IMG/VR virus record: IMGVR_UViG_2521172734_000008
Span: 1-21,054 of that record
Strand: one strand, 5' to 3'
Source of the DNA: a virus
Lineage: Duplodnaviria > Heunggongvirae > Uroviricota > Caudoviricetes
Length of the DNA: 21,054 nt
Shown here piece by piece: positions 1 through 6,000 of the stretch (position 1 is its first letter; every line of letters begins with the position of its first letter). Position numbers: made by a program.

Positions 1-3000
1 TTATGATGATGCCGGTGCATTTATCTCCAGCACCAGACTTTCTATCTCAACGCCATACGTTGCATTTTTGGTAATATCCGTCAGCGTCAGTGCATTTAGT
101 CCCACTGCCAGACTGTCTTTTATGGCCTGGAATGCCGGGCCAGCCACTCCATTCAGTTTCGGAGTAACCGTGGCACTGCCGGCGGTGAACACCAGTTCCA
201 GCGTTTGCCAGTCATTACTGTAATTCCCGAACTCGCCCAACTTTGTGTTTCCTGCTTTCTTGTGATGCATCAGATTCAGTTTGCCGTCTGTGGTCTGGGT
301 GAAGAACGACATCAGGAACGGGTTACCAGTCCCGGTCATCGCCACGACGTCAGGTAACGCTACATCGGTATACAGATAAATTCCCAGGCCGAACTGGTTG
401 TTGGTCAGTGCGCCTGACAGTCGAAACTTACAGCTCAGTCTGCCACCCCGTGTCAGCAGGGAGACTGCGTCATCCACCGGGCGCGTCAGGGACCAGGCTT
501 TATTGCTCTGCTTGGTGATCTTAAATACACCCTCTGACAACTGAATTCCGCCATTCTTAATGCTCCAGCCCTGCGCAGCAGCGTCTCCGGCTGTCGGCAA
601 CAGGGAGATTGTGCGTACGGATGCATCTTCAGACGGCCCCGATGGCGTGTCGCCGCCGGGCGAGGGTTTGATTTCCGGTGCCTTACCACTGATGAAGGCT
701 GAGGTGCGCCCGGCTGCGTTCAGAATAGCGGTTGCCATACGATCCGGAATAATGCTCCTGCGCGCCCATGAACTGAAATGTGTCGGGCGGTTTGATGATA
801 CCTGGTTTCCATTCGTTCTCGATGCCGCACCGTAATATCCTGATGCCGGAATATCCGGATCTTCTGCCGGTGCGTTAGTGGCGGTATTGACGCCGTTACC
901 GTCTGTCATGAAGGGCACAAAATAAACGCCCTCACTCTCCCTGTTTTTATACCCGCCGTACACGGTGTCGTACTGGGTAGCGTATGTATTTTTCCAGTAA
1001 TACGTCGTGTCACCACAAATCCACGGCACATTTACAGCACTGCCACCATGACACTGCGCGTTAAACACAGTGAGGTCAGCACGAAACTGCTTCAGCATGG
1101 CTGTAAACAGCGCAGGTTGCTGTGCGTAGGTGGCGGCGTTCATGTCAAACTCTCCCTGCATCCAGCACACCGCCAGCAACACATTTTTCGGGTTCTTCTG
1201 TAATGCAGCTTTAGTGCGCGCAATCAGGTCCTGATATAACGGTTTACCCACACCCCAGCGTGCCGAATCCTGGCTGGCCCCCGCGTCCGCACTGAATGTC
1301 CCCTCCGCGCCCTTGGTGAATGCCGAACCACCACGACAGCATGGTACCAGCAGGATCCCCGCGTTATTCGGGATATACGGGAGCAGTTTTTTGGCAATAT
1401 GTAAGCCCTGGCCGACACAGCCGTACTGCCCTTTGCTCAGGTCTGCCTTCGGATGATTCAGCGTACTCATATCCTGCACATCATGCAGACAGTGGTCAGC
1501 CGGGATGATGTCGTTATACGTACAACTCTCTCCACCCGGAGTTACCGTGCTGCGGCGCGCCAGCTGTTTAATGCGCGGATCCGGAGCATCGTAAGAATCC
1601 GGTAACGGAAGCCCTTCACCGTAGGCCATGCCGTTGGACTGTCCGGCAAGCACAACCACGTAGAACCAGTCCGGCTCAGATGAAGGGCCGACCTGTGGAT
1701 CTCCTTCAATAGCCACCGCCTGCATCAGTGTGTACGGCGTAATGGCAACCGGTCCGCCATATGGCTGCCAGCCCTCTTTCAGTTTGTGTGTCAGCTTTTC
1801 CGCAAGGTCTGACGGCGACGCCGCCCTGACAACATCATAGTGTTTAAATGCCATGAATCCTCCCGGCCGGGATAATATTGTGAGTAAAATGAGGAGCGGG
1901 CTGAAGTCCGGAAGTTACAGGACAATGGCAGAAGAGAGACAATAGCCCGCAATACGAAAAAGGCCGCGCTATTGCGCAGAGTGATTACTGTCGGATATTA
2001 TTCGCCAGCTGAAATATTACTTCACGTTTTGTTGTTTATTCCTTGCCGCCCGCGTCTCCCTGCGCGGGATTTTTTTGTCCATAAGAAAGCCCCTCCGGAG
2101 AGGGGCTGGAGAGTGGCGCTATGTGCCATTGCATGGTGCCGGGTGCCTCCCGGTGAATTCAGTACCAGCACCTGAATCCGCGATTATCCCATATACCTAC
2201 TCGCTGATTGCCCCTCCGCACAGGGGGATTCACCATGCCAGTTTCTTTTAACAAACTCCCCGCAAAACAGACAACTGTCAACCGTCTGAATTGTGAGACA
2301 TTTAAAAAAAAGGACCCGCAAAAGCGAGCCAGGGAAAATAAGTGTGGCGCGTTGTACTGGATTCGAACCAGTGACCGATTGCTTAGAAGGCAATTGCTCT
2401 GTCCGGCTGAGCTAACAACGCAGGGTACAGATAATGGACCGCCATCGAGGACTCGAACCCCGCGCAACCAGCTTCGAAGGCTGGCGCTCTATCCTGATGA
2501 GCTAATGGCGGTATGTGATGGTGGCCCTTGCTGGATTTGAACCAGCGACCTGGCGATTATGAGTCGCTCTCACCACTGAGCTAAAGGGCCGGGAGCCGCA
2601 TAATAACGACGCGTAATTAATTCTTCAATATCATCCGTTCTGGCTGACTAAATCCTGTACTTCCCGAACCGTCTGCTCAAAACATTCAGTCTCCAGCTCA
2701 ACGCCAATTGCACGACGCCCGAGCGCCAGTGCTGCTTTGACGCTACGGACATAAAAAAGCCAGCCACTGGGGGAGGCTGGCGAAACTCGTAGAGCAAAAG
2801 TGTTGTTACACTAACTTCGTCACAGGGTTATCCTGCAATACTCAAAATACACAATATTTACAAAACTAATAGTATACAAGGCGATCTTTAAGATTTTGTT
2901 ATAAATTATTGCCTTTCTCCTCTTTCCATGAGCTTTCTGGGTAGCCACAGAATTCCGGGTACAGAAAAACCCGCTCAGCGGCGGGTTTAAGCTGTGTGAC

Positions 3001-6000
3001 GAAGTAACCACTCTTAACAGCATAACCAATTTTTTACGTACGTAAACCACTAAATGATATTTGCGAGAATGCTACCGAGTATTGAAAACACCACTACAAA
3101 TACATAAGCAAATCTCAACAAATAACCAACAAATAATTTCCAGTGTTATTTTTAGCCTGTTTAAATTGAACCTTCAAATTATAGAGCACTTATAAATAAC
3201 AGCCGTTAATATAAATTGGCTAATAGATTTATTTTTATTCAGCCAAGAGCCATGAATAGGATTCGATAGAAAAAAGTTCAGATAAAAATAGAGATCTACT
3301 TCACAAATCAAACGAGAAACCAAAACTTACATCTTGAAATAATCACATTGATTAGATGAATATTTATCGCGCAGTGACATCATTTTTTAATAATAGTTCA
3401 AAAAAAGGGCTCACGATGAAAAAATTAACAGTGGCAATTTCTGCTGTAGCTGCATCAGTACTGATGGCGATGTCTGCTCAGGCAGCTGAAATTTATAATA
3501 AAGACAGTAACAAGCTGGATCTGTACGGGAAAGTTAATGCTAAGCACTATTTCTCCTCTAATGATGCAGATGATGGTGATACTACTTATGCCCGTCTTGG
3601 CTTCAAAGGTGAAACCCAAATCAACGATCAACTGACTGGTTTCGGTCAGTGGGAATATGAATTCAAAGGCAACCGCGCTGAATCTCAAGGTTCCTCCAAA
3701 GATAAAACCCGTCTTGCCTTCGCTGGCCTGAAATTCGGTGACTACGGCTCAATCGATTACGGCCGTAACTACGGTGTAGCATACGACATCGGTGCGTGGA
3801 CTGACGTTCTGCCAGAATTCGGTGGCGATACCTGGACCCAAACAGATGTGTTCATGACTGGTCGCACCACTGGTGTTGCAACTTATCGTAACAACGACTT
3901 CTTTGGTCTGGTTGATGGTCTGAACTTTGCTGCTCAGTATCAGGGTAAAAATGACCGCACTGACGTAACTGAAGCTAATGGTGATGGTTTCGGTTTCTCC
4001 ACTACTTATGAGTATGAAGGATTCGGTGTAGGTGCAACCTATGCTAAATCTGACCGCACTAATAATCAGGTTATCTACGGTAACAACAGCCTGAATGCAT
4101 CTGGTCAAAATGCTGAAGTATGGGCAGCTGGTCTGAAATATGATGCGAACAACATCTATCTGGCTACCACCTATTCTGAAACCCAGAACATGACTGTTTT
4201 TGGTAATAACCATATTGCCAACAAAGCACAAAACTTCGAAGTAGTTGCACAATATCAGTTCGACTTCGGTCTGCGTCCGTCCGTTGCTTACCTGCAATCT
4301 AAAGGAAAAGACTTGGGTGCGTGGGGTGATCAGGACCTGGTTGAATATATTGATGTAGGTGCAACCTATTACTTCAACAAAAATATGTCCACTTTTGTTG
4401 ATTACAAAATCAACCTGATTGATAAGAGCGATTTCACGAAAGCATCTGGCGTTGCTACCGATGATATCGTTGCTGTAGGTATGGTTTACCAGTTCTAATT
4501 TGATTACTAAAAGATATGTTGCGGGAGGCTTTGCCTCCCCAACATATAAGTGGCTCCCTCAAGCCACTTCCTTTAGGAGCACAACCTTGCTTCTAACTAT
4601 ATAAACCTTCTGTTATATATTACCCTTTATTTTTGGGGGCGTTGCAACGCCCCATTTTTAATAATTTTTAGTAAACAATTGGCATATTAATTAGAGTTAT
4701 TAACAACGATATCCATCTCTAACCGGATATCTAATGCCATTAACATCCCTTCAATTATGCCCTCAGCCTTCTGTAACCTTTTCCCGATATAACCATCAGA
4801 GCAGCAATGCTTACCTGCCAGTGACATGAATGTCATACCGACTACATAATAATCTACTAATAAATCGTGCAAATCGCTGTTGTTCTTTTTCAGACGGGCC
4901 ATGCACCCGCAAATAATCATCGCGTCATCGTCACAACATTGCGGGCGAGATTTTACTTTTGAAGTAATTAATCCCTTAAAACCGGCGGCAATGGACGACC
5001 AGGTCACATCTTCATGATTATTTGCCGCCCACGCTCCCCAGCGTTCGAGAACCATCTGAATATCACGCATCAACTTTCTCCACAAAATCAGGACAGCACA
5101 CCAATCGCCAGCGCGCGATCGATAAAACGAAATATCAGCTCCAGTTGGGAACCATACTTCTCTTCAAATGCCACGGTATCCGCATGTAGTTCGTCATGGT
5201 GTTTTCTGCACAAAGGCAACACAAAAAGGTCATGCGCTTTTGTACCCATTCCACCCTGACCATGACCAATCAGGTGATGAGGATCGTCGGCTGGCTTACC
5301 ACAACATGCACACGGCTGCGTCTTAACCCAGCGCGTGTACTTTTCATTAACCCAGCGACGACGTTTTGGGCGTAACATAAAAGACTCCGGCGACTCCGGA
5401 TCCACTTTCAGCGCCAGCACCTTTTTCGCTTTATCCTGGATGATGCTGGTGGCAGGAACCGAAGGCACAAGGTCACTTTCCCGGGTGACAGACGGCACAA
5501 CAGGCTTCGGTAATCTCAGTGCCTTACGGGCTGCACTTTCCGGTAAGGCATCCGCCAGGTCATTACGAATCAGCCACCAGCACAGTTCCGGCATTGTCAC
5601 AACGTGACTGTCATCAAAACCGAGATCCCGACGCACAACAGACAACACCCAGCGGGCACAGTTATCCGTTGCCATTGATTCCAGCCGTTCCGTGAACTGA
5701 TCGCGCAGCTGGTTATCGCAGTGCCAGCACAGACGGATTGCACCCGGAGCGTGTCGCATTGTGGTCATGTTCTCGCTGTGCCTGTCGGAATGAGGCCACT
5801 GGCAGCCTTTTTCACGAAGTAACCAGCTTTCAAGACATTCCACGCCACCAGCACGACGGATCACTGCCTCATTGCGGAACACGGCCCGAACGGCAGGATC
5901 ATCCGCCAGCGGTTGTGATGCCGCCGGAACGGCACCACTGGCGAAAGATGAATAACGTTCCGGCTCAGGCTCCAGCAGGACACGCCCCTGCATAAACAGG

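Follow-up and report, generated by a model that had tools for sequence, protein, structure and literature searches.

An unoccupied toxin slot in the putative late control region of a lambdoid Escherichia coli prophage lacking stx

Closest described systems and layout of the window

The late regions of phages that carry Shiga toxin (Stx) genes in Escherichia coli share a common order. In Stx2a phages (those of the Sp5/933W type, Stx2_EC3283 and Stx2_14040) and in the Stx1 phage VT1-Sakai (Sp15), the antiterminator gene Q is followed by the late promoter pR', the StxS leader and its terminator tR', then by a further terminator, the cargo, an STnc100-family gene, a convergent RNA, a NanS-p-type esterase gene and a holin gene. 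Among the Stx phages compared, only the Stx2 phages contain the transfer RNA (tRNA) genes ileZ-argN-argO, with stx1 replacing the tRNA block in VT1-Sakai. The stretch of DNA considered here, namely, 21,054 nucleotides (nt) of viral record IMGVR_UViG_2521172734_000008 (hereafter, the window), shares this order. Its positions 1-5105 correspond with a probability of roughly 90% to the late control region, assembled from two known modules, of a lambdoid prophage lacking stx. All of the components, as well as the stx-free arrangement itself, have already been documented, for instance in prophage Sp4 of the O157:H7 strain Sakai.

Sp4 (ileZ1-argN1-argO1, a 489-bp gap and ECs_1088), like the window, lacks stx and is collinear with it across the tRNA trio, the gap and the esterase gene, with window positions 1-2593 being 95.9% identical at the nucleotide level. 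Upstream of the tRNAs, Sp4 differs in encoding an AraC-family regulator, a CAAX protease and a different Q (78% nucleotide identity) but no porin, while its ileZ1 is of full length (76 nt), unlike tRNA(CAT) of the window. Nil3 (AM051322, from O157:H7) comprises Q, tR' and three tRNAs without stx and presents the same bare junction as the window; positions 1901-3047 are collinear and 91.8% identical, and the gap is 98.6% identical. Unlike in the window, the Q gene of Nil3 is of the 933W type and abuts pR', with no porin in between. The Stx phages, by contrast, carry stx (a 1,332-bp stx2 cassette, or stx1), Q lies directly against pR' without an intervening porin gene, and the convergent RNA of Sp5 is the 54-nt AsxR, which is absent from the window. 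A different set of relatives, i.e., DLP12 of strain K-12 (quuD-ipeX-nmpC), 434, mEp332 and PA-2 (lc), displays the same convergent geometry of Q and porin, with pR' lying beyond the porin gene. Here, the segment of DLP12 from pR' through the first hairpin is 94% identical to the window, yet nmpC of K-12 is interrupted by IS5, whereas the porin gene of the window is intact. Moreover, the lysis genes of DLP12 come directly after the first hairpin, with no StxS-type leader, tRNAs, small RNA (sRNA) pair or esterase gene.

The window belongs to a lambdoid E. coli prophage in which the early-to-late direction corresponds to the minus strand. Read in this direction, replication genes and a DUF968 gene precede Q, a porin gene found on the plus strand, tRNA(CAT), tRNA-Arg(TCG), tRNA-Arg(TCT), a gap and the esterase gene. 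This confirms the order given in the original prediction, made from the sequence alone, with small corrections to the limits of the gap (1855-2344), the porin start and Q (4687-5070). It equally supports the claim that such an order is the architecture found around stx, since the annotation of Sakai Sp5 reads Q, ileZ, argN, argO, stx2A, stx2B and esterase. A prophage of the O111:H21 strain 15A (NZ_CP077477) is 99.98-100% identical to the window, apart from one insertion sequence, IS903B. Where strain 15A contains IS903B, the window retains a 378-bp segment (15862-16239), indicating that the window derives from a sister genome lacking this element.

The first module (approximately 5105 to 2964), of the DLP12/434/PA-2 type, would provide a QuuD-type Q, a convergent nmpC/lc-type porin gene, an IpeX-like 3' RNA, the cognate pR' and the first leader hairpin. 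The second (approximately 2964 to 1), of the Sakai Sp4/933W type, would provide the StxS-like leader up to tR', a methylase remnant, the ileZ-argN-argO tRNAs with their terminator, the unoccupied cargo slot, a convergent sRNA pair of the STnc100 family and EcOnc08/21 type, and the NanS-p esterase gene preceding the lysis genes. The features assigned are listed in Table 1, where fold energies are given together with z scores; Rfam scores were compared with the gathering thresholds. Pfam and annotated homologues of near-identical sequence identified every protein unambiguously.

Table 1. Features assigned in positions 1-5105 of the window.
Feature	Position	Strand	Basis
NanS-p-type sialate O-acetylesterase gene, 617 amino acids (aa)	1-1854	-	DUF1737 + SASA + DUF6645 (Pfam)
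Gap between tRNA-Arg(TCT) and esterase gene, 490 bp	1855-2344
Putative convergent small-RNA gene, EcOnc08/21/42 type; intrinsic terminator 2049-2068, U-run to 2076	1911-2076	+	Identity to Sakai Sp4 loci
Terminator-like hairpin between sRNA pair and esterase start	1964-1979	-	Pattern scan; fold -9.1 kcal/mol, z -2.2
STnc100-family sRNA gene (EcOnc27/PasD relatives)	2077-2300	-	Rfam match 2077-2267; terminator 2107-2088
Unoccupied stx/cargo insertion point	2300-2304		Two-flank alignment to stx2 cassette phages
Intrinsic terminator directly 3' of tRNA-Arg(TCT); hairpin 2330-2313, then 8 T	2304-2330	-	Fold -10.7 kcal/mol, z -2.8
tRNA-Arg(TCT), argO-like	2345-2421	-	ARAGORN; Rfam
tRNA-Arg(TCG), argN-like	2435-2511	-	ARAGORN; Rfam
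tRNA(CAT), ileZ-like, 72 nt	2519-2590	-	ARAGORN; Rfam
C-terminal remnant of DNA methyltransferase gene	2630-2743	-	Pseudogene call of the Prokaryotic Genome Annotation Pipeline (PGAP) in near-identical genome; aligns to 3' end of Stx2_14040 methylase
StxS-like 3' part of pR' leader, ending in tR' (stem 2781-2759, U-run 2758-2753)	2753-2828	-	~92% identical to Sp5/Sp15 leader; fold z -3.3
First leader hairpin and U-run; last DLP12-shared segment, module crossover point	2965-2988	-	Alignment and fold
Late promoter pR' and Q-utilisation region (qut); -35 TTTACG 3046-3041, -10 TATGCT 3024-3019	3012-3047	-	Aligns to VT1-Sakai pR'/qut; matches DLP12
AT-rich porin upstream region, ~30% GC	3048-3415	+	99.2% identical to K-12 DLP12
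NmpC/Lc-type general porin gene, intact, 360 aa	3416-4498	+	Porin_1 E 3.7e-153 over full profile; phrog_410 1-360 of 360
IpeX-like structured 3' region of porin transcript; terminator 4636-4653	4499-4660	+	Position and similarity
Antiterminator Q gene, QuuD type, 127 aa	4687-5070	-	PF06530 at 4e-53

The cargo slot and the small RNA genes beside it

Window positions 1757-2300 and 2303-3047 align at 86-87% identity to both flanks of the stx2 cassette in two Stx2a phages (cassette at 5457-6788 in L002 and 5471-6802 in L003), as expected of a toxin-free relative of Stx phages. In the base-level alignment, the cassette begins right after the U-run of the tRNA-Arg(TCT) terminator, itself kept upstream of stx2A in Stx2 phages, and stops a few bases short of a conserved TCACAATTCAG...TTGACA block. 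These alignments place the toxin slot at a junction of a few bp around 2300-2304 and not in the 490-bp gap, which the original prediction had taken for the empty toxin locus. Indeed, Stx phages keep nearly the whole gap between stxB and the esterase gene, with 1855-2160 matching the spacer that follows stx1B in VT1-Sakai at 98% identity and the gap being ~86% identical to Stx2_14040 over 446 bp. The toxin operon of Stx phages lies between the third terminator of the late strand and the STnc100 gene, where the window offers a bare junction.

Across the 21-kb window, no similarity to stx DNA or protein beyond chance was detected (E values of at least 0.34 with blastn-short and of at least 0.2 with tblastn). 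The stx promoter or remnant that it had been suggested to seek in the gap was likewise not found anywhere in the window, where only chance matches were returned. As no stxA or stxB lies between pR'/tRNAs and the esterase gene, the window does not represent a Stx-converting phage.

To place the junction in context, 5,426 complete E. coli genomes were probed with window positions 2200-2420 (at least 80% covered). The bare, stx-free junction was present in 1,040 of these, many being O157:H7. The tRNA-esterase junction is, as such, a common arrangement, one half of the objection that had been foreseen to a link with the toxin locus; the other half, that it bears no relationship to stx-flanking sequence, does not hold, given that the two are clearly related. 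In addition, 119 copies of the site on viral contigs (IMG/VR) were collected by anchoring on the STnc100 terminator, and the slot upstream of the sRNA was surveyed. In 59 copies, only the tRNA terminator was present and no stx lay within 2.2 kb, while stx1 and stx2 each occupied the slot in six copies, tR' directly abutted the sRNA in 12, a 142-aa lipoprotein with a TolA C-terminal domain was encoded in four, and the remaining copies presented other contexts. With its contents varying in this manner, the site is a real cargo-exchange point, as had been proposed, and the window shows its commonest state.

Two of these states were considered separately. The lipoprotein, seen in an IMG/VR contig (L043) and in CE10-type E. 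coli, contains the TolA C-terminal domain PF06519 (E 6e-23); it represents another cargo at this insertion point and may act as an exclusion factor. The minimal state, seen in L123 (equivalent to window 2753-2296) and in 11 similar IMG/VR loci, has tR' abutting the STnc100 promoter block, with no methylase remnant, tRNAs or cargo.

The gap itself is not empty, as it contains, judging from sequence, a predicted STnc100-family sRNA gene and a predicted convergent gene for an RNA of the Hfq-bound type. In terms of proteins, the claim that the gap holds no credible open reading frame (ORF) was upheld, with the ORFs wholly inside it (49-67 aa) matching no PHROG family and PGAP marking only a pseudo-fragment. 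On the minus strand, the match to STnc100 (RF02076) scored 139.2 bits against a gathering threshold of 47 (E 1.2e-31) and spanned model positions 1-206 of 206. STnc100 occupies the same position in a Stx1 phage, three Stx2 phages and two stx-free phages. In the literature, STnc100 is described as lying 75 nt downstream of stx2 (PMC12370729), PasD/STnc100 are reported to adjoin esterase genes (Zhu, Shabalina and Storz, preprint, bioRxiv 10.64898/2026.05.13.724894), and convergent sRNAs are known at the moron site downstream of pR' (PMC4104026). A -10-like TTAAAT sequence (2305-2300) lies ahead of the conserved TCACAATTCAG block (2296-2286); indeed, a -10-like motif (TGTTAAAT or TGTAAT) precedes this block in every context examined. 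This suggests that the STnc100 transcript would start near 2293. The same logic predicts an RNA of ~212 nt in the window and of ~239 nt in Sp5, the latter in agreement with EcOnc27, the Hfq-bound STnc100-type RNA of Sakai Sp5, which migrates at 235/247 nt in northern blots.

On the plus strand, the window gap is 99.0% identical to that of Sakai Sp4, where Hfq cross-linking (Hfq-CRAC) revealed Hfq-bound EcOnc08/EcOnc21 (~271 nt on northern) on the convergent strand of the spacer (Tree et al., 2014). Placed on the window, the Hfq-CRAC peaks correspond to 2002-2074 (EcOnc08) and 1911-1996 (EcOnc21). Identity to the Hfq-CRAC loci of Sakai Sp4/Sp15, a strand opposite to that of late transcription and an end at an intrinsic terminator all point to an RNA of the EcOnc08/21/42 type, with the terminator facing STnc100 tail-to-tail. 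In 127 copies, a sample biased to close relatives, substitutions cluster in an unpaired GU-rich GUUUUGUUG tract and in the hairpin loop. No Rfam match to AsxR or AgvB (RF02703/RF02702) was obtained at E <= 10 in window positions 1800-2400, whereas the equivalent position of Sp5 scores 88 bits for AsxR, such that the plus-strand RNA is not a member of these families. A 54-nt AsxR-like RNA (2023-2076), considered by analogy to Sp5, was therefore dropped as the main reading, the more so as the Sakai peaks extend further upstream and derive from an RNA of ~271 nt, although a short form internal to that RNA may also be made.

No clear sigma-70 promoter for the plus-strand RNA was recognized, the only candidates being the weak ATGCCA-17-GATAAT (1848-1876) and TGTTTAAAT (1841-1849). 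At a length of ~271 nt, this RNA would have its 5' end near 1806 and cover, in antisense, both the start codon (1852-1854) and the ribosome-binding site of the esterase gene. Speculatively, and with rather low probability, the gap could serve as a gate that acts through cis-antisense or transcription interference on nanS-p and on late read-through and that is kept whatever the cargo in the slot. Such a gate would explain why the spacer is 94-99% conserved across Stx1, Stx2 and stx-free phages, when the esterase gene is only ~70% identical to the copies of Stx phages over most of its length. The proposal was not found in the literature searched.

The Q-porin module, the late leader and downstream genes

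Window positions 5105-2964 are collinear with the K-12 DLP12 prophage (quuD, nmpC and beyond) at 92-99% identity. The Q protein is identical to K-12 QuuD at 127 of 127 residues. QuuD and the Q protein of 933W-type phages (144 aa; that of Sp5 at L007 3890-4324) are homologous through '...RLEMD' and divergent thereafter (window 4687-4737), and in 933W-type phages the 3' end of Q overlaps the -35 element of pR'. Since the DLP12-type porin-ipeX block starts exactly where the Q homology ends, it replaces the Q C-terminus and shifts pR' some 1.6 kb away. At least 35 phage genomes, those of 434 and mEp332 among them, share this Q-porin-pR' block.

The porin gene shares 92% nucleotide identity with K-12 nmpC and 98.8% with phage PhiR34_1, and the closest relatives of its product in the PDB are OmpK37, OmpC and PhoE (E ~1e-135). 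Its true start is likely 3416 and not 3356, given that both the signal peptide and the full-length phrog_410 match agree with the former. The ~160 nt that follow the stop codon are 96.8% identical to the quuD-nmpC spacer of K-12 and fold at -61.8 kcal/mol (z -7.75); this identity, together with the position, indicates that 4499-4660 probably corresponds to IpeX. According to two reviews (PMC12197685; PMC8065619), IpeX is a 167-nt RNA that derives from the DLP12/PA-2 porin transcript and lowers OmpC/OmpF. Hence, a QuuD-type Q, a convergent OmpC-family porin gene, a structured IpeX region and a pR' beyond the porin gene, the hallmarks of the DLP12/434/PA-2 module, are all found here. The porin gene, which diverges from pR' and converges on Q, does lie on the opposite strand between Q and the tRNAs, as originally described. 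It does not, however, sit there instead of stx: being upstream of pR' and outside the late operon, it is part of a DLP12/434-type module and no stand-in for the toxin genes.

Window positions 3047-2744 align with the annotated pR', qut and terminators of VT1-Sakai, and the homology to 933W-type phages ends exactly upstream of the pR' -35 element. Within this region, a 55-bp block (2965-3019) is 95-96% conserved in L003 and L004, where it is directly downstream of Q. The leader is a hybrid: its DLP12-type part runs from pR' to the end of the first hairpin (2988-2965), and the remainder, up to the second terminator (2781-2753), is of the Stx-phage type; the comparison of the Q-tRNA junction with DLP12 and 933W-like prophages, which had been recommended, thus finds DLP12-type sequence up to the first hairpin and 933W/Sp4-type sequence beyond. 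The second terminator lies ~259 nt from the predicted pR' start. In Sakai, StxS-L was mapped at 258 nt as the pR' transcript ended at tR' (PMC7547250), with StxS itself being a 74-nt 3' fragment of the transcript so ended that contains an rpoS-activating seed (Sy et al., 2020). Assignment of tR' to the hairpin at 2988-2965 was dropped, since the 258-nt distance of the StxS study (PMC7547250) matches the second terminator. As in Stx phages, Q is followed in the window by a pR'/tR' leader with homology to the StxS region, albeit with a 5' part of the DLP12 type. Because the crossover falls in a leader hairpin common to both module types, QuuD keeps its own promoter and qut while driving a downstream region of the 933W/Sp4 type. 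Such a fusion, in its precise form, is rare: only three of the 5,426 complete genomes covered at least 80% of a probe spanning 2560-3480, and only five did so for the whole 6.2 kb. It is nonetheless conventional lambdoid mosaicism.

Downstream of tR', the cluster ileZ(CAT)-argN(TCG)-argO(TCT) is again that of the Stx-phage-type backbone. The three tRNAs score 56-70 bits in Rfam, against a gathering score of 29, and the block (2345-2590) is 96% identical to that of Sakai Sp4. At the junction of its D and anticodon stems, tRNA(CAT) lacks 4 nt (GAGC) that are kept in ileZ2 of Sp5, in Nil3 and in the two Stx2a phages. An intact methyltransferase gene lies between Q and the tRNAs in phages of the Stx2_14040 type and in many prophages of E. 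coli; the methylase remnant marks a second variable interval, occupied by the methylase or by nothing, between tR' and the tRNAs.

The esterase shares 93.5% amino acid identity with ECs_1088 of Sakai Sp4, but only 54% with H0032 of VT1-Sakai (the homologue of 933W L0105). Its translation includes the GQSN catalytic motif, and the combination of DUF1737, SASA and a C-terminal lectin-like domain in a gene located before the holin gene, which follows it in the near-identical genome, is that of the NanS-p-type esterases of the Stx-phage backbone, with the activity being a predicted one. Several nanS-p alleles have been reported in non-Stx prophages (PMC8065619). The hairpin between the sRNA pair and the esterase gene is conserved in all aligned phages and is a putative terminator.

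Taken as a working model, pR' would fire constitutively in the lysogen, with transcription ending within the leader to yield a StxS-like RNA, while the sRNAs, and probably the tRNAs, would be made from their own promoters. Upon induction, RNA polymerase modified by QuuD would pass five late-strand terminators (2988-2965, 2781-2753, 2330-2304, 2107-2082 and 1979-1964) into the esterase and lysis genes. Any expression of the porin and IpeX would be independent of the late operon.

Alternative explanations and significance

Several points weigh against the assignment of the region as a working late-gene control region of this composition. The transcript starts and the activity of pR', of the porin promoter and of the sRNA promoters are all deduced from homologues. 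The leader differs from StxS of Sakai at ~6 of the 76 positions of the processed part, and the good U-run of the first hairpin might stop most transcripts after ~48 nt, cutting or abolishing the StxS-like product. With its 4-nt deletion, tRNA(CAT) is probably defective (72 rather than 76 nt; 58 rather than 72 bits in Rfam), though PGAP calls it tRNA-Ile. Finally, the porin gene may be silent, as quiescence of nmpC-type porins has been described for some E. coli strains (Prilipov, 1998, as cited in PMC3333887).

Set beside the assembly from two modules, the proposal that the prophage arose recently from a Stx phage by deletion of the toxin cassette draws on the breakpoint, which falls precisely at both ends of the stx2 cassette. 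The direct repeats sought at those ends amounted to a weak, imperfect ATATCTG/TAATCTG resemblance that flanks the cassette in Stx2 phages and could mediate deletion, yet this remains within chance expectation. The flanks, moreover, stand at 96-99% identity to the stx-free Sp4 as compared to 86-87% to the Stx2a phages, and the gap is nearly that of the stx-free Nil3. Recent toxin loss is very unlikely, given that every Stx phage examined is far more distant in the flanks than Sp4 and Nil3, that the same bare junction recurs in over a thousand genomes and that no stx promoter or coding remnant persists. Slightly less credible still is the notion that the 490-bp gap is a functionless spacer in which the Rfam match merely reflects conserved phage DNA. 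The lack of ORFs and the hypothetical nature of the role assigned to STnc100 (PMC12370729) would fit such a notion. It is, however, hard to reconcile with a full-length covariance-model match 92 bits above threshold, intrinsic terminators on both strands, Hfq-bound RNAs of defined size from near-identical Sakai loci and retention of the spacer in every cargo context.

Least probable of all is that the porin gene is a late-operon moron in the cargo role of stx, transcribed from or controlled by pR'. Its location between Q and the tRNAs and a composition unlike that of its surroundings (30-45% GC) could be read in this way, but pR' at 3047-3012 points away from the gene, which lies upstream of the promoter and on the opposite strand, and DLP12, 434 and many viable phages all show the arrangement as a fixed one, whatever cargo follows downstream. 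The evidence therefore continues to favour a late-gene control region composed of a DLP12-type Q-porin module joined to an Sp4/933W-type region with an unoccupied slot.

Beyond correct annotation, the locus itself is of little significance. Because the sRNA pair, the StxS-like leader and the IpeX-like RNA go unmarked in automated annotation, gaps of this kind look empty although they are not. Definition of the toxin slot as being bounded by the tRNA terminator and the sRNA promoter helps in scanning for empty stx sites and in predicting where new cargo lands. With about one complete genome in five presenting the unoccupied junction, the Stx-phage backbone is a common E. coli chassis.

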